A DNA stretch of 21,783 nucleotides, taken from UHGV virus genome UHGV-0017033; one strand, given 5' to 3'. Positions 8,150-21,783 of this stretch are shown in pieces; position 1 is the first letter of the stretch; every line of letters starts with the position of its first letter. Position numbers and translations under genes: made by a program. The notes under the pieces were generated by a model. That model was not told where the DNA came from and made no database searches. It saw only the letters and a program-made list of their open reading frames with translations. Origin of the DNA: a virus.

Positions 8150-8380
8150 ATGACACACATGGTCTTTCGTCATGGCGACATGAAGAAGTGGAAAGGCGTT
8201 GGATACGACTTTGAAATCGTGAAAGCCGAAGAGCTTCAGGAATATCTGGATGCTGGCTGGTTTGCACATCCTGATGATCTTCTGAAGGATGTTGCAGAGC
8301 CAGAGCCAGAAGAAAAACAGCGTAAAAAGCCTGGTCGAAAACCTAAGGCGGCAGTAGATGAACCTGACAACGAAGGGTGA
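8150..8380 (+). CDS. Small hypothetical protein between coat and gp4 (about 76 aa)
   Basis: ATG at 8150 preceded by GGAGAC; this is the in-frame internal start of track ORF 7970..8380, whose upstream part overlaps the coat gene. Lys/Pro-rich tail [19 protein letters not shown]22 has a small ORF at this position (recalled). Confidence 0.5.
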
Positions 8381-8858
8381 TTTAGTTCTTGCGGCATTAC
8401 GTAAGCTCGGTGTGGCATCAAATGCCACGTTAACCGATGTCGAACCGCAGTCTATGGAAGACGGCGTCAACGACCTTGAAATGATGATGGCTGAATGGCT
8501 TGGCGGTGATGTGTCACCTGGTATCAACGTTGGTTACATTTTCGCTGATGCAGATGTCGCTCCAGATCCGGGCGATGAGCACGGTTTATCAAATAACGCT
8601 ATCAATGCTGTCATTTTCAACCTTGCCTGCCGCATTGCACCGGATTATGCGCTGGAAGCGCCTGCAAAACTTATAACCACTGCCAGATACGGGAAAGAGC
8701 GACTCGTCAAACTGTCTGCAATGGACAGAGCAAAAGCCGCTAAATGTAAGCCCGGTTATCCAAACCGTATGCCTGTTGGTAGCGGTAACCAGTTGGCGAA
8801 GTGGAACGGTTGGAATTACTTCCACCGAAAGGAACCTTGCGATAACGGGAGCGAATAA
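8358..8858 (+). CDS. Head completion / tail accessory protein (P22 gp4-like)
   Basis: 166-aa ORF, same length as recalled for P22 gp4; motifs [28 protein letters not shown] and [14 protein letters not shown] resemble gp4; start overlaps the upstream small ORF. Confidence 0.85.
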
Positions 8859-10276
8859 TGCCTATTCAGCAACTTCCGCTTATGAAAGGTGTCGGCAAAG
8901 ACTTTAGAAACGCCGACTATATCGACTATCTGCCAGTGAATATGTTGGCTACACCCAAAGAAATCCTGAACAGCAGCGGATATCTTCGCTCATTCCCGGG
9001 CATTGCCAAACGTTCTGATGTGAACGGCGTATCGCGCGGCGTCGAGTACAACATGGTGCAGAGTGCTGTTTATCGCGTGTGTGGTGGCAAACTGTACAAA
9101 GGAGAAAGCGAGGTTGGTGATGTTGCCGGAAGTGGTCGCGTATCAATGGCGCATGGGCGGACATCACAGGCGGTAGGCGTTAATGGGCAACTGGTCGAGT
9201 ATCGCTATGATGGCACGGTTAAAACCGTCTCAAACTGGCCTACAGACAGCGGATTCACGCAGTATGAGTTAGGTTCGGTTCGTGACATTACGCGCTTACG
9301 TGGGCGTTATGCGTGGTCAAAAGACGGAACTGATTCATGGTTCATCACTGACCTTAAAGACGAATCACATCCTGACCGCTACAGCGCACAATATCGTGCC
9401 GAGTCTCAGCCTGACGGTATCATCGGCATCGGAACATGGCGAGACTTCATTGTCTGCTTTGGTTCATCGACGATTGAATATTTTTCCCTGACTGGTGCAA
9501 CCACCGTTGGTGCCGCTTTGTATGTCGCACAGCCATCACTGATGGTGCAGAAAGGTATTGCCGGGACTTACTGCAAAACGCCATTCGCTGATTCTTATGC
9601 GTTCATCAGCAATCCGGCAACAGGTGCGCCGTCTGTATATATCATCGGCTCCGGTCAGGTGTCACCAATCGCCAGCGCTAGCATTGAGAAAATTCTCCGC
9701 TCATACACTGCTGATGAACTGGCTGATGGTGTGATGGAATCGCTGCGATTTGATGCTCATGAGTTGCTGATTATCCACCTTCCGCGCCATGTTCTCGTGT
9801 ACGACGCATCTTCAAGCGCCAATGGTCCGCAATGGTGTGTGTTGAAAACTGGCCTGTATGACGATGTGTACCGCGCTATCGACTTCATTTACGAAGGCAA
9901 TCAGATAACGTGCGGCGATAAGCTGGAATCGGTGACCGGGAAATTGCAGTTCGACATCAGCAGCCAGTACGACAAGCAACAGGAACACCTGCTGTTTACT
10001 CCGTTGTTCAAAGCTGAGAACGCCAGATGTTTTGATCTGGAAGTTGAATCATCGACTGGTGTCGCTCAGTACGCTGACCGCCTGTTCCTCTCTGCAACCG
10101 CTGACGGCATCAACTGGGGACGTGAGCAGATGATTGAGCAGAATGAACCGTTCGTTTACGACAAACGCGTTTTGTGGAAGCGTGTCGGGCGAATCAGGAA
10201 AAATGTCGGCTTCAAATTGCGTGTTATCACGAAGTCACCTGTCACTCTGTCTGGCGCTCAGATAAGGATTGAGTAA
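8858..10276 (+). CDS. Tail accessory protein (P22 gp10-like)
   Basis: 472-aa ORF whose ATG overlaps the gp4 stop (ATAATG); length and position match P22 gene 10. Confidence 0.82.
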
Positions 10277-11124
10277 TGGCGGATTCGAATCTCAATGAGC
10301 CGGTAATCATTCAGGCTACACGACTCGACACATCAGTCCTTCCGCGTAATATCTTCTCGCAGTCATATCTGCTGTACGTTATTGCACAGGGTACTGATGT
10401 TGGTAATGTGGCTAACAAGGCCAACGAGGCCGGACAGGGCGCTTATGACGCACAAGTCAGGAACGATGAGCAGGATGTGATTCTGGTCGATCACGAAATT
10501 CGACTGGCATCAGCTGAAGCGAAGATTCAGGACCACGAAACAAGGATCACTAACGCAGAATCGGCGATAGTCGGCCTTGATTCCCGATTAACGACAGCAG
10601 AAAACGATATTGATTATCTGACTGATGAAGTTATCGCCATTCAAAACACGCTTTCAGACCATGAAACGCGCATTGATGCTCTGGAGTATGCCACTACTCG
10701 CAAAAAGTCAGAGGTTGTTTACTCTGGCGTATCTGTAACCATCCCGACAGCGCCGACCAACCTTGTTAGCCTGCTGAAAACGCTCACGCCGTCATCCGGG
10801 ACGTTGGCACCATTCTTCGACACTGTTAACAACAAGATGGTTGTGTTCAACGAGAACAAAACCTTGTTCTTCAAGCTGTCGATCGTCGGGACGTGGCCCA
10901 GCGGAACCGCCAACAGGTCAATGCAGCTAACCTTTTCCGGCTCTGTTCCTGACACGTTGGTCAGCAGTCGTAATGCGGCGACAACAACCGACAACATCCT
11001 GTTAGCTACGTTCTTCAGCGTGGATAAAGACGGCTTTCTTGCCACAAATGGCAGTACGTTAACCATTCAGTCAAATGGTGCGGCGTTTACTGCCACAACC
11101 ATCAAGATAATCGCGGAGCAGTAA
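10276..11124 (+). CDS. Tail needle protein (gp26-like) with extended C-terminal knob domain
   Basis: N-terminus [43 protein letters not shown] matches the gp26 plug region, followed by heptad repeats ([15 protein letters not shown]...). At 282 aa it is longer than P22 gp26 (about 233 aa as recalled), consistent with knobbed needles of Sf6/HK620-type phages. Confidence 0.8.
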
Positions 11125-11579
11125 TGATTCAGTTCAAACCAACGCGAAACATCGACCTGATCGAAGCAGTCGGAAATCACCCTGACATTATTGCCGGGAG
11201 CAACAACGGTGATGGATACGACTACAAACCTGATTGCCGTTACTTTGAGGTGAACGTGCACGGGCAGTTCGGCGGCATTGTTTACTATCAGGAGATTCAG
11301 CCGCTTACATTCGATTGCCACGCCATGTACCTGCCAGAGATTCGCGGATTCAGCAAGGAAATCGGGCTGGCGTTCTGGCGATACATTCTGACTAACACCA
11401 CCGTTCAGTGCATCACATCGTTCGCTGCACGCAAATTCCGCCACGGGCAGATGTACTGCGCAATGATTGGCCTTAAGCGTGTAGGGACCATCAAGAAATA
11501 CTTCAAAGGCGTGGATGACGTGACGTTTTACAGCGCCACACGCGAAGAACTAATCGACTTCCTGAATCACGGGAGATAG
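11124..11579 (+). CDS. gp14-like virion protein
   Basis: 151-aa ORF with start overlapping the needle stop (TAATG); positional equivalent of P22 gene 14 between needle and ejection-protein genes. Confidence 0.65.
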   Translation: MIQFKPTRNIDLIEAVGNHPDIIAGSNNGDGYDYKPDCRYFEVNVHGQFGGIVYYQEIQPLTFDCHAMYLPEIRGFSKEIGLAFWRYILTNTTVQCITSFAARKFRHGQMYCAMIGLKRVGTIKKYFKGVDDVTFYSATREELIDFLNHGR

Positions 11580-11581
11580 CT

Positions 11582-12274
11582 ATGTTATATGCATTTAAGC
11601 TGGGCAGAAAACTGCGCAGCGAGGAACCTTATTGTCCTGAAAAAGGCGGGAAAGGTGGCAGCTCTGATAAAAGCGCAAAGTATGCGGCAGAAGCTCAGAA
11701 GTATGCCGCAGACCTGCAAAATCAGCAGTTCAACACCATCATGAACAACCTGAAGCCGTTTACTCCTCTGGCTGATAAGTATGTCGGCAGCCTCGAGAAC
11801 TTATCGTCTCTGGAGGGGCAAGGTCAGGCGCTAAACCAGTATTACAACTCTCAGCAGTACAAAGATCTTGCTGGTCAGGCTCGCTATCAGATTCTGGCGG
11901 CAGCGGAAGCAACAGGTGGATTGGGTTCCACTGCAACCGGTAATCAGTTAGCAACAATCGCACCAACGCTTGGTCAGCAGTGGCTGTCTGGTCAGATGAA
12001 CAACTACCAGAATCTGGCAAACGTTGGGCTTGGTGCTCTGCAAGGTCAGGCAAACGCAGGGCAGACATATGCCAACAACATGAGTCAGATTTCGCAGCAA
12101 AGTGCGGCTCTTGCAGCGGCAAATGCCAACAGACCATCAGCAATGCAATCTGCTATTGGCGGAGGTGCGTCTGGTGCTATTGCTGGGGCTGGACTTGCGA
12201 AATTAATTGGTTCATCAACTCCGTGGGGTGCTGGTATCGGTGCTGGTCTTGGTCTGCTTGGCTCGTTGTTTTAA
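11582..12274 (+). CDS. Ejection (internal virion) protein, P22 gp7-like
   Basis: 230-aa ORF; Gln/Ala/Gly-rich with glycine-rich hydrophobic C-terminus GAGIGAGLGLLGSLF; position and length match P22 gene 7. Confidence 0.8.
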   Translation: MLYAFKLGRKLRSEEPYCPEKGGKGGSSDKSAKYAAEAQKYAADLQNQQFNTIMNNLKPFTPLADKYVGSLENLSSLEGQGQALNQYYNSQQYKDLAGQARYQILAAAEATGGLGSTATGNQLATIAPTLGQQWLSGQMNNYQNLANVGLGALQGQANAGQTYANNMSQISQQSAALAAANANRPSAMQSAIGGGASGAIAGAGLAKLIGSSTPWGAGIGAGLGLLGSLF

Positions 12275-12284
12275 GGGGTAATCA

Positions 12285-13649
12285 ATGGCTACGTGGCAAC
12301 AGGGTATTAATTCTGGTGGTTTTCTGGCTGGCATCGGTACGCAAAATGAGAATGCGCCAAAGGCAAGCGACATTAACGCAACGCTTGGTCTGATCCGCGA
12401 AAACAATGAACTGGCTCGCTCAGGTGCAAATAACGTTGGCCTGACCGCGTTACGTGGTCTGGCTGGAGTTGCTGATATTTACAATCAGGAACAGCAACAG
12501 AAAGCTATTAGTGCGTTCAATAAGGTTCACGCTGATGCATGGGCTTCTGGTGATCCATCGGGACTATTTAAGTTTGCCCAGGAAAATCCAGCGTTTGTTG
12601 CACAGGCACAACAGGCGTTTTCCGGTCTTAATGATCAGCAACGCAACGATATGGGCGATTTAGCCATGAGGGCTAACGTCGCTCTTTCTCAGGGACCGGA
12701 AGCCTACAGTAAATTCATTACTGATAACAAGGACAGGTTAAATCGCGTGGGGGCGAATGCTGACTGGATGATTCAGACAGGTATTCAGAATCCAGAGCAG
12801 CTATCACACATGCTGACTACTATGTCTCTCGGTGCACTTGGGCCAGAAAAGGCGTTTGCTGTTCAGGACAAGATGGCTGGTCGTGAAATTGACCGAGGCA
12901 GGCTGGCAGAGACAATCCGCAGCAATCAGGCTGGCGAGGCGCTAACAGCACGAGGTCAGAATATCACGATGCGCGGTCAGGATTTATCGATGCAGAGAGC
13001 ATCAATGAAAGGGGCGGTTGGGAATAATGAGCGTACAGTTCAGTTAGCAGATGGCAGAACTGTAACGGTAGGCGGGAAGCTTCACGGCGCTGGGGCTAAT
13101 GCGTTCTACGAAGGTATCGACAACGAGGGGAATATGGTTCGCGTTCCTGCTGGCTCTATTGCCGCTCCGGCTACATCGGCAGCAAGCGCGCAGAATTACG
13201 CAATGAAGAAAGATCTTGATGCAATTTCTGGTGCATCAATTGACGATCTTGGCTTCATGACTGGCATTACAGGCTCTTCAGGTTCTCCTGCTCTTGGTGC
13301 AGATATTCGTAGCCGTGCATCTGGTGGTGATCAGAGGAAACTATACAACGCTGCACAGCGAATCCAAGGAAAGATGCAGAATCAGGGCATTGCAGCAGCC
13401 AGAGACATGGGGGCATCCGGTATCAACACCGTTGCAGAAGCAAAGATGTATTTTCAAGGTATGCCACAGGTTGATTTCTCAAGCCCTGAAGCACTGCAAC
13501 AATCAATGCGCGACATTCAGCAATATACCGACAATTACAACCAACAATATAACGTTAATGTTGGTAAATCTCAGCGGCAGCAATCTCAACCTACACAGGT
13601 ATCACAGCCAGCAGCCAGCAGTAACTTTTCTTCACTATGGGGTGATTAA
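12285..13649 (+). CDS. Ejection (internal virion) protein, P22 gp20-like
   Basis: 454-aa ORF following the gp7 homologue; low-complexity Ala/Gln/Gly-rich composition typical of ejection proteins; positional match to P22 gene 20. Confidence 0.8.
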
Positions 13650-15808
13650 TGGCTAAAGCATGGAAAGATGTTATCGCCTCTCCACAGTATCAGGCGTTAA
13701 CTGAAGAACAGAAAGCACAGGCTCAAGCGCAATATTTTGATGAGGTTGTTGCCCCTAAGGCTGGTGACAAATGGGCTGAAGCAAGAGATCAGTTTTATGC
13801 AGCATACCCTCCGCCTCAGCAGCAGAAAGAAGAACCATCATTGATGCAACAAGCTGGTGATTGGCTCACAGGTGGTCAAAGTGCAGGGCAAATTGCAGAG
13901 CAGGCTGGTCGTGGTCTGGTAAACATACCATTCGACGTATTACAGGGCGGCGCAAGCCTGATTAATGCAATCAGCCAGGGGCTTGGTGGCCCCAAGGTTT
14001 TGGATGATGTTTATCGTCCAGTCGATCGACCGACAGACCCTTACGCGCAAGCCGGTGAAACAATTGGTGGGTATCTCCTGCCAATTGGCACAGCGGCAAA
14101 AGCTGCTGGAGCGCCAGCAAAGCTCGCTGAAAATATCGGTTCCGCAGGAAACATGATTGCAGGCTCTCTTGCTGATGCTGCAAATCAGGAGGGTGATTTT
14201 GCACAAAATGCTGCCATTAACGGTGGTATCAATATTGGTGCTCAAGGCGTTCTTTCAGGTGTCGGGCGCGTTATTGCGCCAAGGGTTTCACAGGCTCTTG
14301 GTGGTGCAGCACTGAATTCTGCTAATGATGTTTCCAGGATGGCAAAGTCAGGTGCTGGGCGTCAGTCAATTGCCAGTCAGGCCGCTAATGTGTCCGAAGA
14401 TGTAGCAAAAGCGGCTGAGTCTGCTGGAATTGATATAAACGCATTAACACCAGGAATGCGATCTGGAAGTCGTGGAATTGCACAAGCCGAAGGCGCATTG
14501 GCATCAACACCAGGGATTGTTCAGGATGCCCATCAGGCAGCATTTAACGAAATATCATCAAAGTTAAGTCGAAACCTTGATGAATTTGGGGCCGCATCTG
14601 GAACGGCATCAGAAAAAAGTGCGGCTATAAAACAAAGGATTCTTAAAAATCTTGATCAGATGAAGGATGCTGAGCGCGCGGCATGGGATGACGTGCGGTC
14701 AACAATGCCAAATCAAAAAGCAAGAATGCTAAATGGTAATGCCGTTATTCAGGCAGAGCGATCTGCTGGCATACCGCTTACTCCTGAAATGAAACAGTTT
14801 GTTCAGGCAAACAATCAAGGTGGAGTAACATTTGATGGCATGAAAGCATGGAGAGCGAAATTTGCTGATGCGGAGCAAAAATATAAGCGTAGCGGAGAGG
14901 CAAATGCGGCAAGGAGAGCAGGGGAAATACGTCGGGCAATTACTGATGATATGCGCACAATGGCGGAAAACGGCGGATTTTTTGATGACTGGCAAAAAGC
15001 TAATGATCTGTCTAAAGCGAGGCTATCCGCACAAGAGAGTGCAGAGTCTGTTTTTGGGCGTGATTTGGCAACAGATGCACTGATTACGAATGGAGTAAAA
15101 TCTCTTCAATCATCGTCAGCTAAAGGTCTTAATGGTCCTGCTGGATTCCATTCTATGATCCGCGCGCTGCCAGAATCAGAGCGTGTTCCTGCTATATCAT
15201 CAATGTTGCAGGATGCTATCTCGCATGGTGTACGTGGTGGCAAATCTGATGCAGCAGGAATTAACCATATCGCAGGGATACTTACACCACAAAATGTAAA
15301 AGCCATTAGCAGATATTCCTCAGAACTTGGAAGAATTGCTGATGCATATGGCACTCTTGCAAGAGCAGCAGTGAAACCTCAGCAGTATATTGAAAGAACA
15401 GGGAGAACTGCCAATGTACTACGCGATCTGGATGCTGGTTTATCCAACGTCACATCAACAGTGTTAAATGCAATTGCCAACTCAACATCAGGTGCCATTG
15501 TTGGTGGCGCTGGAGGGGGCATTGCAGGCGCTGCCGCGGGTGCTTTAGTTGGCGCCGGGTTAAAAGGCGCTGTATCTAAAATTGCCACCACACGTAGTGG
15601 TCGATATGCGATAGAGAAAGCTGTTCAGGAAGCCACCAAAGCAGTAAGAGCTGGCGGAAGTAAAGAAGCATTAGCGGCGGCGGAACGCAGATTTATGGCA
15701 AATAAAGCCGCCGTAAAAGCAATACGTGATGCAGTTGGAAACGAAGAGTTCAATCGCTTAGCGAGGGCTGGCATTGTAGCGTCGCTAAGCGGAATAGCAC
15801 AGGAGTAA
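13649..15808 (+). CDS. Ejection (internal virion) protein, P22 gp16-like, apparently extended
   Basis: 719-aa ORF, last gene of the late-operon block; Ala/Gly-rich with hydrophobic glycine-zipper-like segment [24 protein letters not shown] near the C-terminus; positional match to P22 gene 16. Confidence 0.8.
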
Positions 15809-16132
15809 TTAATCATCCATGGATGGATTGAGCTTATCTCGTGTTGATGTGGCGATTTGTCCTACATTCCTAATCCAAGATTTCAAATCCTTGATATTGT
15901 CATTGATTTCATGAATATCTTCTTTTTTTAGCCTGTTAATATTATTCTCAATAATTTCAATGGATTGCTCAATATCAGATATGGTGAATGATAGTTTGTT
16001 CTTCTCATCTTTTATTGAGTTTTTAAGTGCTTCGTTCTCAGTCTTGAGGTCAGATATCTTTTGTTTTAAAGATGCCAGTTGGTACTGAACCACAATGAGT
16101 GCGATAGCTATCACGATAACTGTTGTATACAC
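15809..16132 (-). CDS. Small membrane-anchored coiled-coil protein (moron; function unknown)
   Basis: 107-aa minus-strand ORF starting at GTG with a strong AAGGAGG Shine-Dalgarno 5 nt upstream. N-terminal transmembrane helix TTVIVIAIALIVV followed by a heptad-rich Lys/Glu/Asn/Ile segment. Lies in a strikingly AT-rich islet, tail-to-tail with gp16. Confidence 0.65.
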   Translation of the reverse strand: MYTTVIVIAIALIVVQYQLASLKQKISDLKTENEALKNSIKDEKNKLSFTISDIEQSIEIIENNINRLKKEDIHEINDNIKDLKSWIRNVGQIATSTRDKLNPSMDD

Positions 16133-16249
16133 ACCAACCTCCTTAGTTTTGAGCAGGATACCATGAAAAAAGTAAACATCTTTTGCCTACTTCACATTTG
16201 AATGGTTTGTCATTAGGATGTTTCCGGTTTTTTAAATATGGAAATTGAT

Positions 16250-16669
16250 ATGAAGAGGATTATTGGCGTCGTTGCTGGCGCTATATTGTTATCTGGGTGC
16301 GCAACTATTGTTGGTGACGAAACGCAGCTTGTGCAAGTGAACAGCAATCCTTCCGGTGCGAGCTTTAAGGTAAAAGACGAATCAGGCGTGATTGTTGCGC
16401 AAGGTAAGACCCCGCAAGGAGTAACTCTTGCCAAGTCAGATGGTAGTTATTTTGGCAAAAAGAGCTACCAGATCACTATGGAAAAGGATGGGTACGAACC
16501 AGTTACCCTGCCAATCAAAGCCAATGCTAATGGCTGGTATATTGGTGGAAACCTTGTGTTTGGTGGGTTAATTGGTTGGCTTGCTGTAGATCCTTTTAAT
16601 GGTGGGATGTATACCTTGAAGCCAAAAGAGGCAAACGCATCTCTTATACCATCAACAAAGCAAGACTAA
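16250..16669 (+). CDS. Putative outer-membrane lipoprotein with PEGA-like domain (moron; function unknown)
   Basis: Signal peptide MKRIIGVVAGAILLSGC with lipobox LSGC; NPSGASFKV...GKTPQGVTL...KDGYEP resembles a PEGA domain (recalled motif); Gly/Trp-rich C-terminal segment. An upstream in-frame ATG at 16238 is an alternative start. Followed by an intrinsic terminator. Confidence 0.7.
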   Translation: MKRIIGVVAGAILLSGCATIVGDETQLVQVNSNPSGASFKVKDESGVIVAQGKTPQGVTLAKSDGSYFGKKSYQITMEKDGYEPVTLPIKANANGWYIGGNLVFGGLIGWLAVDPFNGGMYTLKPKEANASLIPSTKQD

Positions 16670-16677
16670 TAAATAGG

Positions 16678-16700
16678 ACCCACCTTCAGGTGGGTTTTTT
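16678..16700 (+). terminator. Intrinsic terminator after the lipoprotein gene (overlaps the mnt 3' end)
   Basis: ACCCACC-TTCA-GGTGGGT perfect 7-bp stem followed by a T6 run, 9 nt after the lipoprotein stop. Confidence 0.65.
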
Positions 16701-16937
16701 GTACAAATCCTTCAGCGTATCAAACACCATCTTCTTAACAAGCTCTGACTGCTCATCAGCGAGTCGTTCTGCATCGTCGCGATATCCAGTCACAGGCGAT
16801 GGTTTTGATAGAGCATCTTGGACGATTTGTAACAACTCGGAGTTCATTGATCTCCCATTCGCCTCCGCCCTGAATTTTAATTTCTCCCTTACTTCCATAG
16901 GCATACGGAAGTTAAAGTGCGGATCATCTCTAGCCAT
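16686..16937 (-). CDS. mnt: Mnt repressor (ribbon-helix-helix)
   Basis: 83-aa translation MARDDPHFNFRMPMEVREKLKFRAEANGRSMNSELLQIVQDAL... matches my recollection of P22 Mnt almost residue for residue. Confidence 0.9.
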   Translation of the reverse strand: MARDDPHFNFRMPMEVREKLKFRAEANGRSMNSELLQIVQDALSKPSPVTGYRDDAERLADEQSELVKKMVFDTLKDLYKKPT

Positions 16938-16959
16938 GCCATCACTCCAAGTTAGTGTA

Positions 16960-16988
16960 TTGACATGATAGAAGCACTCTACTATATT
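16960..16988 (+). promoter_or_regulatory. Pant-like promoter (-35 TTGACA, -10 TATATT) overlapping the arc operator
   Basis: TTGACA at 16960-16965, 17-bp spacer, TATATT at 16983-16988, directly upstream of arc; matches the known P22 Pant arrangement in which Arc binds between -35 and -10. Confidence 0.55.
16965..16985. promoter_or_regulatory. Arc operator (O-arc)
   Basis: ATGATAGAAGCACTCTACTAT, the 21-bp arc operator sequence as I recall it from P22, located between mnt and arc. Confidence 0.7.
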
Positions 16989-16994
16989 CTCAAT

Positions 16995-17011
16995 AGGTCC
17001 ACGGTGGACCT
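16995..17011. promoter_or_regulatory. Mnt operator (O-mnt)
   Basis: AGGTCCACGGTGGACCT, a 17-bp palindrome symmetric about the central base, matching the P22 mnt operator as recalled; lies between the arc operator and the arc start codon. Confidence 0.75.
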
Positions 17012-17027
17012 ATATTGTGAGGTGAAT

Positions 17028-17189
17028 ATGAAAGGAATGAGCAAGATGCCGCAGTTCAATTTGCGGTGGCCTAAAGAAGTATTGGATTTGGTCCGCAAGG
17101 TGGCGGAAGAGAATGGTCGGTCTGTTAACTCTGAGATTTATCAGAGAGTAATGGAAAGCTTTAAGAAGGAAGGGCGCATTGGCGCGTAA
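17028..17189 (+). CDS. arc: Arc repressor (ribbon-helix-helix)
   Basis: 53-aa translation [53 protein letters not shown] matches P22 Arc as recalled (one conservative difference). The track ORF begins upstream at an ATG inside the operator; the true start is the in-frame ATG at 17028. Confidence 0.9.
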
Positions 17190-17262
17190 AGTTGAAGCCC
17201 CAACTGCGGGAACAGTCAGGGCTTCGGTTGTCAGTAAATCCGTGGAGAAAAACCAACATGAA
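17190..17262 (-). ncRNA. sar: Putative sar antisense RNA (small antirepressor-regulating RNA) in the arc-ant intercistronic region
   Basis: By analogy with P22, where a short antisense RNA is transcribed from the arc-ant spacer and pairs with the ant ribosome-binding site. The minus strand here contains inverted repeats GAAGCCC/GGGCTTC. Exact ends are not determinable from sequence alone. Confidence 0.4.
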
Positions 17263-18193
17263 TAGTATAGCAATTTTAGAAGCAGTGAACACCTCTTACG
17301 TACCATTCAACGGTCAGCAAATTATCACCGCCATGGCTGCCGGAGTTGCATATGTTGCGATGAAGCCAATCGTTGAAAACCTTGGAATGAGCTGGTCAAC
17401 GCAGCAAACAAAACTCATGAAGCAGATTAGCAAATTCAACTGTGTTCATATGAACATGGTTGCCGCTGATGGGAAGCTTCGTAAGCTACTCTGCCTTCCT
17501 TTGAAGGAGTTAAATGGATGGCTGTTCAGCATCAACCCTGAGAAAGTTCGTGCTGACATCCGTGATAAACTGATTCAGTACCAGGAGGAATGCTTTAGCG
17601 TGCTGCATGACTACTGGACTAAAGGCCATGTAGTTAACCCACGCAAAGCTAAAAAGGCGTTGCCGGGTAAAATCACCACTGAACAGCAGGAAGCCATAAA
17701 ACAACTCGTCATGAGTCGCGGTCAGTCTCTGCCAAAAGAAAAACAGGCTAAGGCGATGATCACCATGTGGTCGTCACTGAAATCCCATTTTGGATGTTCG
17801 TACAAAGAAATCAGTGAGGAGCAGTTTACCGAAGCACTATCACTTGCAGCTCGAGTTCCACTTGAAGGTGAGTTCATTGGAAAACAAGAGAAGAAAACCA
17901 ACGAGCTTTCTGCAAAAGAAGCAAACAGCCTTGTATGGTTATGGGATTATGCCAACCGCTCACAGGCATTATTCCGCGAACTGTATCCGGCGCTAAAACA
18001 AATTCAATCGAACTATTCCGGCAGATGCTACGACTACGGTCATGAATTCTCGTATGTTATCGGAATGGCGAGAGACGTTTTAATCAATCACACACGAGAT
18101 GTTGATATCAATGAGCCAGACGGACCAACGAATCTTTCCGCATGGATGAGACTTAAGAATAAAGAATTACCTCCTTCAGTACATAACTACTGA
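17258..18193 (+). CDS. ant: Antirepressor Ant
   Basis: Internal ATG at 17258 gives [33 protein letters not shown]..., matching the P22 Ant N-terminus as recalled; immediately downstream of arc as in immI. The track ORF extends upstream to 17192. Confidence 0.85.
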
Positions 18194-18211
18194 CAGATAA
18201 CCAACGCAACG

Positions 18212-18234
18212 ACCCAGCTTCGGCTGGGTTTTTT
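18212..18234 (+). terminator. Intrinsic terminator after ant
   Basis: CCCAGC-TTCG-GCTGGG perfect stem followed by a T7 run, 19 nt after the ant stop. Confidence 0.7.
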
Positions 18235-18293
18235 TATGCCCAAAATTCACCGTAGCCATGCTGCGGCGATTCCTTGTATCTGGAGCAAATTAA

Positions 18294-20297
18294 ATGACAG
18301 ACATTACAGCCAATGTTGTGGTAAGCATGCCTTCGCAACTCTTCACTATGGCTCGTTCTTTTAAAGCGGTTGCCAATGGCAAAATTTATATCGGTAAAAT
18401 TGACACTGACCCTGTAAATCCTGAAAACCAGATTCAGGTTTATGTGGAGAACGAAGACGGCTCTCACGTTCCTGTATCGCAACCAATCATCATTAACGCC
18501 GCTGGTTACCCTGTATATAACGGACAGATTGCCAAATTCGTAACTGTGCAAGGCCATTCTATGGCTGTTTATGATGCATATGGTGCGCAGCAGTTTTATT
18601 TTCCTAATGTGCTGAAGTATGATCCTGATCAGTTATCTATAAAACTATCAAGTAATATTGGATACAAATACATTGGAATGGTAGAGAGCGCTAACTCCCT
18701 TAAAGATATACAAGGAATGTCGATATCTGATAAATTATATTTAAAATCATACGTATCCGGACTCGAACTTGGTGGTGGGTTTGTTGTAGCTGTAGACAAG
18801 TCAATTGCAGTTGATAACGTAATGGTTTTAGAAGGTAACGGTGTAAATTGGAAGAGAATAAACCCAAGCCTTGAGTTTTCTGTATATGACGCTGGTTACA
18901 GCGGCGCTGGGGATATTGCATTATTTATTAATAAAATAAACTCTCTAGGTTATGATTGCGTTGTTCCATGTAGTGGAGAATTCTCGTCTTTAATTGATAT
19001 TGATTTCGCGAAGGGTGGGTTAAGAGGAACGAATAAATGCGTTTTAACTGAGATTAATGGGATATCAGGTGATTATGCAATTAGGTTAAGCAGCTCTAAT
19101 ATTTCTTATGATAATAGGGATGAAATAAATGCAACATCAATTTTAGATGGCATATCTTTTAAGATGCTAGGATCTAAAAAGATTTTACTTGGAGGTATTG
19201 GCGCTGGTGAATTATCAGAGTTAAGAATAAGTAATTCTTCATTCATATCATCTGCTGGAATTGAGTTTCTTGATAATTCATATAGAATTTTATTTGACAA
19301 GGTAACAATATCAAGATGTCTAAACAACACAATTATATTTAATTCTCCATCAAACTCAGGCGAGGTAATGACATTTAATAATTGTTGGGTTGTTGATAAT
19401 GGAGGTCCATTGACAATTAGAAATGGTCAATTTATTTTTAACTGTTGCTCTATGCCAGCAGGTAAGAAAGAAGGTTATTTTGATTCTACTGTTTTTATTG
19501 AAGATAACGCAACCGTTGTTTACTCAAGTGGAAATATTGAGTTTCAGCCAGGTCAAAGCTTTGTTGCGTTCTCTTCATCTGGAAGCACAAGAATAAGCAT
19601 TAAAGATACAACGCTACTTACTCCCTCTGGATATAGTTCAGTTCCGTTTGTTGTAAATGATGATTCAGTACTTTCATTAACAAATTGCTCATTGCCTTTA
19701 TTTGACCAAATGGATTTGGCGACAGGATCAGCAACTAGACAGGTAGTTGGAGGTAATAGTAAAAAAATAATGTCATATGGATGCTATCCACGATCTGGAT
19801 TTATAACAACTCAGTGGGATAAAGGGAACATAGTTAGTCCATACATAAATTCGCTATCAAATGGAAGTGGACAGTTTTTAAACTACTCTAACTGGAGCCT
19901 TCAACAAACTGGTTCAGGTGTTGTTACAGCAGGAACGGATTCTGATGTTCCAAATGATATTATGTTTTCCAGGTCTTTGTATGTAGCAATACCATCTATA
20001 GGAGCATCTGCAAAATTTTATCAGGAGTGCTCAGACTGCTCACCAGGACGATATTTCCAGTTAGGTTTTTGGGCTAAGAATCAAGTGACAACAATCTCTG
20101 GTATTGAGTTTTTTGATAAAGAAGGGAACTCTGTTCAGGGAAAAGCAACATTTACAATTCCACTAGGCTCCACATGGAATTTCTACGCATTAATAGATAT
20201 TGTTCCTCCTGGAGCAAGCAAAGTTAGGATTGATTTTGATGTTTCCGGTGAAGCAGGCTCTCTTCATTTGCATAATGTTATTTATGGGCTGATTTGA
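18294..20297 (+). CDS. Tailspike protein: conserved P22/Sf6-type head-binding N-terminal domain fused to a divergent, AT-rich receptor-binding body
   Basis: N-terminal ~112 aa ([43 protein letters not shown]...VLKYDPDQ) match the conserved head-binding domain of P22-like tailspikes. Beyond about nt 18630 the DNA becomes visibly AT-rich and the protein no longer resembles P22 gp9 as recalled. 667 aa. Confidence 0.85.
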
Positions 20298-20388
20298 AGA
20301 TTTCACATCTAATGTGACCAAACTTAGACAAAACAAAGCCTTGTCTGGATTGCAAAGCTTTGTACTATCCGATAGTGGTTAAGGTTGG

Positions 20389-21546
20389 TCACTCCACCTT
20401 TTCATCAATCCAATCCGCCCACCATTGCATCATTTCTCTGCGCTTTTCTAGATACTGAGCATGGTTGTAAATCCCACGCACAGATCCGCCGTTGGCATGT
20501 GCCAGTTGCACTTCAATAGCGTCAGCAGGCCATTCGTGCTCGTTCATAATTGTGCTGAATTCATGCCTGAATCCGTGACCGCTTTCCAGACCCTCATAGC
20601 CGATTTGTTTGATCACAAGTAGCACCGCGTTCTCGCAGATTGGCTTCTTCTTATCGTTGCGTCCGGCAAAAACAAACTCTGATACTGGTTTGGTGATGGA
20701 GCTTAGCGTAGTGAGAAGTTCAACCACCTGGTCTGACATCGGGACCACATGAATTTTGCGTCCCTTCATCACACTGGCGTCGATGGTGATAATCCTGTTT
20801 TCAAAATCGACGTTCTTCCATAGCATGGAACGAAGCTCTTTCGTTCTTAGGGCTGTGTAGCGTAAAACTTTGGTCGCAATGAGCGATACGATGCTTCCTG
20901 AAAATGTTGCCAGTGCTTTGTTGAATGCAGGGATCTGGTCTGCAGGAAGAAACGGGAAGTTCTTCTTGCGGTATCCTTTCATGGCGTCAGCAAGGTCAGG
21001 TGCCGGGTTATATTTAGCCCTGCCGGTGACAATAGCGTAACGGAAAACCTCGCCGCATCTTCTGCGGGCTTTATTGGCTCGTTCCATTGCACCGCGATCT
21101 TCAAATCTGCGGATTACTTCCAGCAGTTGCATCGGCTCAATATCCTGAATTTCAAGGCCGCCGATGATAGGTAAAATGTCGTCATCAAACATTTTTGCAA
21201 GTTCAGTCGCATACCCTACTGACCATACTTGCTTCTTGTGCTCGTACCATTCCTTGTAAATCGCACTAAAGGAATTGTTGTTAGACGAAGCCTTTTTCGC
21301 CTTTACCGGATCGATGCCAACCGAGATGTCTTTCCTCGCAGTCCATGCCTTATCCCTTGCCTCCTGCAAAGTCATTAGCGGATATTTTCCTACGGTCAGG
21401 ATTTTCTCCTTACCGTCAATCTTGTAGCGAAGCTGCCATACCTTTTTCCCGGATACAGGGACATAAAGGTACAGGCCATTACCATCGAGAAGGCGGTATG
21501 GTTTTTCTTTCGGCTTTGCTGCTTCAATCTGCTTAACGGTGAGCAT
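20389..21546 (-). CDS. int: Tyrosine site-specific integrase (argW-associated IntS/Sf6-type)
   Basis: Translation from the ATG at 21546 (MLTVKQIEAAKPKEKPYRLLDGNGLYLYVPVSGKKVWQLRY...) has an integrase N-terminal arm-binding domain and a C-terminal catalytic region with HGFRHEF and a downstream RGIY-type tyrosine motif. Same strand as, and directly downstream of, tRNA-Arg. The track ORF extends to a GTG at 21582. Confidence 0.9.
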   Translation of the reverse strand: MLTVKQIEAAKPKEKPYRLLDGNGLYLYVPVSGKKVWQLRYKIDGKEKILTVGKYPLMTLQEARDKAWTARKDISVGIDPVKAKKASSNNNSFSAIYKEWYEHKKQVWSVGYATELAKMFDDDILPIIGGLEIQDIEPMQLLEVIRRFEDRGAMERANKARRRCGEVFRYAIVTGRAKYNPAPDLADAMKGYRKKNFPFLPADQIPAFNKALATFSGSIVSLIATKVLRYTALRTKELRSMLWKNVDFENRIITIDASVMKGRKIHVVPMSDQVVELLTTLSSITKPVSEFVFAGRNDKKKPICENAVLLVIKQIGYEGLESGHGFRHEFSTIMNEHEWPADAIEVQLAHANGGSVRGIYNHAQYLEKRREMMQWWADWIDEKVE

Positions 21547-21707
21547 GGGTAAAAATCCGGTGGGTAAAATTATTTTATCCACTTTTTACCCGTCATGGAG
21601 TGCGGCTGTCAACGATCTGAAGCGAACCATGGCGAACTGTGAATCTACGGAAGGCTTGATATTAAGGGGATTTTGCGGACTGGTACGGATGGGAGCGAAC
21701 TGATAAA

Positions 21708-21782
21708 TGGTGTCCCCTGCAGGAATCGAACCTGCAATTAGCCCTTAGGAGGGGCTCGTTATATCCATTTAACTAAGAGGAC
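21708..21782 (-). tRNA. argW: tRNA-Arg (anticodon CCU), complete 75-nt gene with encoded CCA; argW-type phage attachment target
   Basis: Minus-strand sequence GTCCTCTTAGTTAAATGGATATAACGAGCCCCTCCTAAGGGCTAATTGCAGGTTCGATTCCTGCAGGGGACACCA folds as a cloverleaf (acceptor GTCCTCT/AGGGGAC, anticodon stem with CU-CCT-AA loop, T-loop GGTTCGATTCC) and matches E. coli argW as I recall it. Confidence 0.93.
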
Positions 21783-21783
21783 A

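Follow-up and report, generated by a model that had tools for sequence, protein, structure and literature searches.

Two groups of described tailspikes come closest to the protein analysed here, each in a different part of the polypeptide. The tailspikes of phages P22, Sf6, HK620, and CUS-3 have in common with it the head-binding domain with the YDPDQ hinge, and their genes, as in our case, follow the immI/ant region and lie beside int, but the bodies of these spikes are unrelated in sequence to the body of our protein. Tailspike protein 4 (TSP4, ORF213; PDB 5W6H) of the Kuttervirus phage CBA120 is, on the contrary, homologous to this body end to end, from the neck through D3' and the beta-helix to D4. 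In CBA120, these parts are preceded by about 480 N-terminal residues (anchor, XD1-3, and D1-D2), and the protein belongs to a branched complex of four spikes on a myovirus baseplate, whereas our protein has a 113-aa head-binding domain of P22 type in place of those residues. The neck of TSP4 precedes D3' (residues 503-557), and its D4 is a beta-sandwich resembling carbohydrate-binding proteins (PMC7506556).

[quoted passage not shown] An O78 subtype of RBPs spanning the phage genera considered here has been defined with a subtype threshold of at least 30% identity, and receptor-binding domains (RBDs) of one subtype have been described as retaining their serogroup down to 30% identity (PMC10408124). 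The same source assigns to the O78 subtype the RBP of a Lederbergvirus prophage, RHB17-C10 (CP057690.1; Table S1, with the structure in Fig. 7 of that paper), and reports that the flanking DNA motifs conserved in the lytic genera are absent from Lederbergvirus prophages (PMC10408124). The RBP of RHB17-C10 combines a Lederbergvirus anchor (to aa 123) with an O78-subtype RBD and is likened by us to our protein by its published architecture. Thus, the joining of a Lederbergvirus head to an O78-type body was already known.

The tailspike gene (18294-20297, plus strand) is complete in the ORF list of the window, that is, of the whole 21,783-nt stretch of viral DNA that was analysed, and encodes 667 aa followed by a stop codon. 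The same tailspike protein is encoded by two metagenome contigs (L008 and L009), and the window is 100% identical over 13,490 bases to the ENA metagenome contig ERZ27287145 k141_390837. Four minus-strand ORFs that overlap the gene (18234-18557, 18629-18799, 18700-18921, and 19106-19330) were judged incidental.

Residues 1-113 (18294-18632, plus strand) constitute a head-binding, or virion attachment, domain of the P22/Sf6/HK620 type. The only Pfam family detected in the ORF is Head_binding (PF09008), matched over its whole profile at aa 1-113 (E = 2.8e-67). The amino acid sequence of this part is 97-98% identical to the corresponding sequences of HK620 and CUS-3, and its matches in the PDB search include Sf6 gp14 (7sg7) and P22 (8tvr, 1lkt). 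The preliminary description of this locus had placed here a P22/Sf6-family head of about 112 residues ending at YDPDQ; the family assignment stands, but the glutamine is residue 113, and the border lies one codon later. In a megablast search of 50,697 phage records, 27 records of Lederbergvirus type, among them HK620, Sf6, CUS-3, epsilon34, and IME10, matched the gene at nt 1-342 with 83-96% identity. The matches were confined to these 342 nt, and the complete mosaic gene was absent from all 50,697 records. Since it is homologous to 5W6H and, in its head domain, to P22, the spike is probably a homotrimer on the tail, onto which residues 1-113 would dock it.

The remaining part of the protein had been described as unlike the body of the P22 endorhamnosidase, which agrees with our results. 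Among the PDB entries, those of P22 and Sf6 matched only the N-terminal part, with the aligned stretches ending at query aa 119-150, and BLASTP comparisons of the body with those of HK620 (E = 0.68) and CUS-3 (E = 4.8) revealed no detectable similarity. By sequence comparison, however, the body is divergent relative to P22, Sf6, and HK620 only, and not relative to known proteins. When aa 113-667 were compared with PDB sequences by phmmer, they matched 5W6H, the enzymatically active part of TSP4, with an E value of 1e-212 and 58% identity, and the top Foldseek match of the predicted structure was also 5w6h_A (E = 1.2e-58; 58% identity over 541 columns). These matches place the body in the family of CBA120 TSP4 and the O78-type spikes, and the earlier opinion that the specificity is not recognisable from sequence cannot be upheld. 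More distant Foldseek matches comprised beta-helix depolymerases, e.g., Klebsiella K2-2 TSP (18% identity), while the last ~150 residues matched carbohydrate-binding modules, such as TmCBM61, CBM11, and others, over ~150 columns.

The structure used in these searches was an AlphaFold2 monomer model built on 37 homologues. The body is modelled confidently (pLDDT of 80-95 in most 10-residue blocks). The head has a pLDDT below 50 because few rows of the alignment include it, and with the model being poor in this region, the head was assigned by the Pfam and PDB sequence matches. Directly after the head comes the neck, or linker (aa 114-132; 18633-18689, plus strand), delimited by protein alignment and represented in the model by a low-confidence helix at residues 114-117. 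It is followed by a probable D3'-like small beta/alpha module (aa 133-187; 18690-18854, plus strand), located by applying an offset of 370 residues to TSP4 residues 503-557. The model of this region contains a helix (134-138) and three strands (147-150, 162-168, and 184-188), with pLDDT values of 84-95. The parallel beta-helix D3, whose edges are approximate (aa ~188-519; 18855-19850, plus strand), is evident in the model as repeated short strands at residues 221-495, in accordance with the Foldseek matches. This domain is presumed to be both the glycosidase and the receptor-binding domain. Eleven aspartate and glutamate residues within aa 207-457 (D207, D221, D237, E253, E309, E324, D335, E357, D368, E416, and D457) are invariant in the 37 homologues and are candidates for catalytic residues. 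In the openly accessible papers, we found neither the catalytic residues nor the cleavage site of TSP4. The C-terminal domain D4 (aa ~524-667; 19863-20294, plus strand), identified with the use of AlphaFold2 and Foldseek, is a beta-sandwich similar to carbohydrate-binding modules; a dip in pLDDT at residues 520-523 precedes it, and its eight strands lie within residues 545-660.

A tblastn search with the body revealed 49 phage records, each covering at least 80% of the query. The highest identity, 68.5%, was to the spike of ep3/vB_EcoM_ECOO78, while CBA120 orf213 and its counterparts in other Kutterviruses were 58% identical, and about 40 further records, of Gamaleya-, Kaguna-, Justusliebig-, and other viruses, 55-59%. 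In general, the body is 55-70% identical to the spikes of numerous phages from O78 hosts. For instance, in the Jilinvirus ep3/vB_EcoM_ECOO78 and in PhAPEC5/7, phiWAO78-1, PD06, ESCO41, XT18, and AVIO78A, the identity is 55-68.5% over about 550 aa, and the spikes of ep3 and other O78 phages end with the same C-terminal motif, H-N-x-I-Y-G-L-I, as our protein. These phages differ in that their spikes have genus-specific N-terminal anchors and that they are mostly lytic. As to the donor, the best match to the body outside P22-like prophages was ~70% identical.

The limits of the foreign part are sharp on both sides. The KYDPDQ hinge occupies aa 108-113, and homology to HK620 and CUS-3 stops there: their nucleotide identity to the gene in consecutive 30-nt steps is 0.90-0.97 up to gene nt 330 and then 0.2-0.6. 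In the multiple alignment, the 5' recombination junction is GATCCTGATCAGTT (18621-18634, plus strand; D-P-D-Q-L), the last bases common to P22-like spikes, right after which the window, E. coli ACN001 with its P22-like prophage, HK620, and CUS-3 split. The motif KYDPDQ[L/F] is found at the hinge of 11 of the 11 relatives with a PF09008 head. At the protein level, similarity to ep3 and CBA120 starts at aa ~113-118 of our protein, corresponding to aa 128 of ep3 and aa ~483 of TSP4. Aligned with the genes of ep3 and CBA120, our gene stays in register up to the stop codon (20295-20297, plus strand), which marks the 3' edge of the swapped module in the ep3/CBA120 and ACN001 alignments; the similarity ends there. 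The DNA downstream of the stop codon is unrelated to ep3 and CBA120 and identical to that of the ACN001 prophage. As the similarity extends from hinge to stop only and is followed by DNA of the ACN001 type, the exchanged unit is exactly 18633-20297. The module swap proposed in the preliminary description is thus borne out by a head that is nearly that of HK620 and CUS-3, a body unrelated to theirs, and sharp edges, one directly after YDPDQ and the other formed by the stop codon; the mosaic is real and of the published kind.

We propose that the body may have entered P22-like phages through recombination at the conserved YDPDQ hinge and may later have moved among P22-like backbones, diversifying in prophages of E. 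coli and Salmonella. One body, 99.5% identical, is found on head alleles that are only ~92% identical: between the window and ACN001, the heads (339 nt) differ at 27 positions and the bodies (1665 nt) at 8, which indicates one body on different head alleles and with different immI regions. Sequence comparisons show, moreover, that the body is itself a mosaic. In the relative P0001, the head and aa 113-200 are 100% identical to those of our protein, aa 201-520 90%, and aa 521-667 99%, and in P0012, a cluster representative placed with the 765-aa spikes described below, the identity is 64% in the beta-helix and 95% in D4.

Among 5,426 complete E. coli genomes, 14 contain the complete mosaic gene, 13 of them at 98.4-98.7% nucleotide identity and one at 93.3%; when the body is considered by itself, 13 genomes have it at 99.5-99.6% identity. 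The 13 E. coli orthologues are annotated merely as 'phage head-binding domain-containing protein'. Any match to the gene was found in 1,117 of the 5,426 genomes, in all but a handful of them to the head part only. The complete window is present in no complete E. coli genome, the best one covering 84% of it at 97.1% identity. Body variants of 70-81% nucleotide identity are encoded in strains APEC17, E7, H10407, and SEC470 by a different type of prophage, located beside yfgI. Three of these strains (APEC17, E7, and H10407), which are O78 strains, have 765-aa spikes whose bodies are 70-71% identical to ours in amino acid sequence, and which differ from our protein in the N-terminal anchor and the prophage backbone. 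Downstream of the APEC17 spike gene lie genes for an acyltransferase, a holin, and a lysozyme, and downstream of the H10407 one, genes for a holin and a lysozyme. The protein database search revealed also spikes with a PF09008 head in Salmonella enterica, including subsp. diarizonae (77-86% identity), a single PF09008-headed spike of 61% identity (P0014), and related spikes of 765 aa and 678 aa in Salmonella and Citrobacter. The exact protein encoded by the window is without an NCBI accession; it falls into a cluster, formed at 90% identity, of 152 proteins, most of them from E. coli.

Taken as a whole, the gene is, with high probability, a P22-like spike with an O78-type body of the TSP4 family. 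It would be the only tailspike of its prophage, which is P22-like (Lederbergvirus) and inserted at argW, with residues 114-667 forming a complete foreign receptor-binding body composed of the neck, D3', beta-helix, and D4. The spike is predicted to bind the O78 O-antigen of E. coli and to cleave it as an endoglycosidase, which would enable the virion to pass the LPS layer and reach the outer membrane. Cleavage of the O78 O-antigen by this very allele, as suggested by homology and host association, appears to us likely, with two points counted against it: the identity to the one tested enzyme is 58%, and nine of the 14 carriers are not O78.

In order to assess the host association, we relied on ACN001, whose O-antigen cluster contains wzx and wzy of the O78 family. 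A genome was regarded as O78 when the ACN001-type wzx-wzy segment was present, which was the case for 40 of the 5,426 genomes. Against this background, the segment is present in five of the 14 carriers (Fisher p = 3e-8) and in nine of all 18 genomes with the body type (p = 1e-15), including all four with the 70-81% variants. The nine non-O78 carriers were assigned to O100 (seven), O145, and O35. Survcare253 has an O100 cluster and an O154 remnant, NC22 is O145, and XB2 is O35; the O100 type of the other six, isolateD and five human isolates, is deduced, as they are outside the O78 list and were put with Survcare253 on the basis of near-identical match statistics and similar gene positions and genome sizes. 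The assumption that every carrier is O78 was thereby refuted (5 of 14 only) and replaced by O-antigen switching after lysogeny.

The genomes of ACN001 (O78), NC22 (O145), and XB2 (O35) have no mismatches to each other in 8.5 kb of the chromosomal flank, none in int and in the 10 kb of upstream prophage, and 0-1 in the spike gene, with 0-1 across 22 kb that include the prophage. In the comparison of ACN001 with XB2, about 4.5 kb at 100% identity is followed by 94-98% identity toward the his/O-antigen region. The mean identity of the his flank, 97.7%, was initially an argument against a shared lineage, which identical protein accessions had suggested, but it masked the 100% segment and the recombination breakpoint beside the O-antigen locus, which were resolved by one-kb bins, and the argument was overturned. 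By these comparisons, the three strains are one clone in which the O-antigen cluster was exchanged after lysogeny. As this clone has the same prophage under O78, O145, and O35, the mismatches between spike and serogroup look like later O-antigen switching. Survcare253 has an identical 8.5-kb chromosomal flank but a different, truncated prophage variant; an O78 ancestry of the O100 group is plausible in view of that flank.

The same carriers might point instead to a TSP4 fold with a shifted specificity, directed to another O-antigen or to a clone-wide glycan (capsule or core) whatever the O type. Apart from nine of the 14 carriers being O100, O145, or O35, the identity to the tested TSP4 of only 58% would speak for it, and so would the greater variability of the central beta-helix compared with the ends, as seen in P0001. 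We consider this unlikely, since O78 is significantly enriched both among the carriers and among all genomes with the body type, the O145 and O35 carriers are clonal with an O78 carrier and have an identical prophage, with a breakpoint by the O locus, and switching after lysogeny explains them more simply. Moreover, RBDs of one subtype are reported to retain their serogroup down to 30% identity (PMC10408124). Still less likely is that the P22-type clade of the TSP4-like body binds a clone-kept glycan across the O78/O35/O145/O100 swaps rather than O78, in which case the spike subtype would no longer predict the serogroup in this clade. To account for the Salmonella relatives, we looked in the literature for a Salmonella O-antigen corresponding to that of O78, with no usable result.

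The gene order in the window is P22-like: gp10, tail needle, gp7, gp20, gp16, Mnt/Arc, Ant, tailspike, int, and tRNA-Arg. A consensus scan detected a putative, terminator-like hairpin (18211-18230, plus strand; 8-bp stem with five G-C pairs, and a T run) between the antirepressor and tailspike genes, and the tANT terminator of HK620 is annotated at the equivalent position. The scan found no terminator-like site 3' of the tailspike gene, and the promoter scan gave 9 sites where 9.4 would be expected by chance. Downstream lies the gene of an IntS-type integrase (20389-21582, minus strand), present in the window as an ORF; on contig L008, which is identical, its product matches Pfam integrase domains, and in ACN001 the gene is annotated as intS. 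Unlike HK620, in which an O-antigen modification gene is located downstream of the tailspike gene, the window is without one; the gap between the tailspike and integrase genes, 91 bp, leaves no room for it. The attachment site is argW, a tRNA-Arg (CCT) gene detected by ARAGORN (21708-21782, minus strand), in the same arrangement as in ACN001, where tRNA-Arg is followed by yfdC and mlaA.

That the gene is a decaying, nonfunctional relic of a defective prophage might be suspected from signs of decay elsewhere, namely an IS2 insertion in VTB97022v, the splitting of the related H10407 spike by an IS66-family element, and the truncated prophage of Survcare253. In the window, however, the ORF is intact and of full length; the neighbouring virion genes of P22 type (terminase through gp16), the integrase gene, and the att tRNA gene are intact as well, and 117 columns are invariant over the 37 aligned sequences, among which the window is included by construction. 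We regard decay as quite improbable in the case of this gene.

The base composition changes at the same borders as the homology. The GC content is 0.43-0.45 at positions 18200-18600, 0.285-0.39 at 18600-20300, and then returns to 0.44-0.49, which confirms the sharp drop from about 18630 noted in the preliminary description. The body (18633-20297) has a GC content of 0.354, the lowest of any 1665-nt window in the sequence; in non-overlapping windows of this size, the minimum is 0.418 and the mean 0.487 (sd 0.025), giving the body a z of -5.4. The GC content of the head-binding domain is 0.428. By codon position, GC3 of the body is 0.238 (z = -3.2 vs. 17 other genes), and z is -2.6 for GC1 and +0.3 for GC2. 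With GC2 normal and the GC3 deficit largest, the second position, which is tied to the amino acid, is unaffected. Homologous bodies are also GC-poor relative to their surroundings: 0.420 in ep3 (anchor 0.520), 0.391 in CBA120 (N-terminal part 0.436), and 0.376 for the APEC17 spike (flanks 0.467). Thus, a low GC content is characteristic of bodies of this type and reaches its extreme in the window copy. That the drop merely reflects the amino acid composition of a beta-helix, with no foreign origin needed, is highly improbable: although S (13.7%), G, I, L, and N are abundant in the body and its GC1 is low, much of the signal is synonymous, the beta-helix bodies of HK620 (0.457) and CUS-3 (0.441) have no AT bias, and the GC edges fall on the homology edges.

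For annotation, the body assigns proteins known only by their head-binding domain to the O78-type spike family. O78-type spikes are of interest for the typing, detection, and targeting of O78 E. coli, both avian-pathogenic and enterotoxigenic. After O-antigen switching, a serogroup predicted from a prophage spike can be wrong. Since an identical prophage occurs under three O-antigen clusters, a prophage spike might, in turn, preserve a record of the earlier serogroup of its host lineage.

The body of the spike (window 18633-20294) is itself mosaic: its segments differ strongly in their identity to one and the same relative. Our comparison of body identities per segment (aa 113-200, 201-520 and 521-667) included the homologous spike proteins P0001, P0008, P0009 and P0012, and the respective values were 1.00/0.90/0.99 for P0001, 0.90/0.72/0.80 for P0008, and 0.49/0.64/0.95 for P0012. 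The same body is carried by P22-type spikes of Salmonella enterica, including subsp. diarizonae, where its identity is 77-86%. Salmonella and Citrobacter also have spikes of 678 aa and 765 aa with this body (Salmonella/Citrobacter relatives: P0002-P0009 and the P0013 cluster, P0039-P0051).

The AT-richness of the O78-type body is a family-wide feature. In all genomes examined, namely, those of ep3, CBA120, and APEC17 (spike gene loci L002, L011, and L012), the GC content of the body is 0.38-0.42 vs. 0.44-0.52 for its own anchor and flanks. A second low-GC patch of the window, at 13649-16132, suggests the presence of further mosaic segments. It comprises a gp16-like DNA-transfer gene (13649-15808; GC3 of 0.321) and an hkcB-like ORF (15809-16132 (-); GC1/2/3 of 0.41/0.24/0.36), and the other virion genes are well above these two in the relevant GC values.

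The similarity of the spike to WceF of Pantoea stewartii (structure 6TGF, E = 3.9e-22) concerns aa 7-203 (window 18312-18902) and extends beyond the head-binding domain, across the neck and the D3' region. Downstream, only 91 bp (window 20298-20388) separate the spike stop codon from the integrase gene, and therefore this interval contains no O-antigen modification gene. In contrast, HK620 has such a gene in the position between the spike and integrase genes, while in the APEC17-type prophage the spike gene is followed by an acyltransferase gene.

The 8294-21783 region of the window is 100% identical to the ENA metagenome contig ERZ27287145 k141_390837. In its exact form, the spike protein is known solely from ENA and Logan assemblies and lacks an NCBI accession. 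Two spikes with the O78-type body are broken by insertion sequences: that of VTB97022v by IS2 (NZ_CP178670.1 1481770-1485112; H80/H98), and that of H10407 by ISCro1 of the IS66 family (L013 2414-7418).

In Survcare253 (L005 6117-26959; L014 1-2485), two O-antigen clusters are arranged in tandem: that of O100 is complete, and that of O154 is a remnant, which includes a second galF and rfbBDAC set, with IS1, IS30, and IS600 as flanking elements. The argW prophage of this strain is truncated, with its tail-needle gene cut and fused to early genes.

The prophages of ACN001 (L017), NC22 (L015), and XB2 (L016) differ by 0-1 mismatches over their length, and the 8.5-kb chromosomal flank has 0 mismatches among these genomes. 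In the comparison of ACN001 with XB2, a breakpoint is located ~4.5 kb into L004, one of the three O-antigen loci (L004, L006, and L007). ACN001, NC22, and XB2 represent a single E. coli clone whose O-antigen clusters are of three different types (O78, O145, and O35, respectively), yet with an identical O78-type prophage spike.
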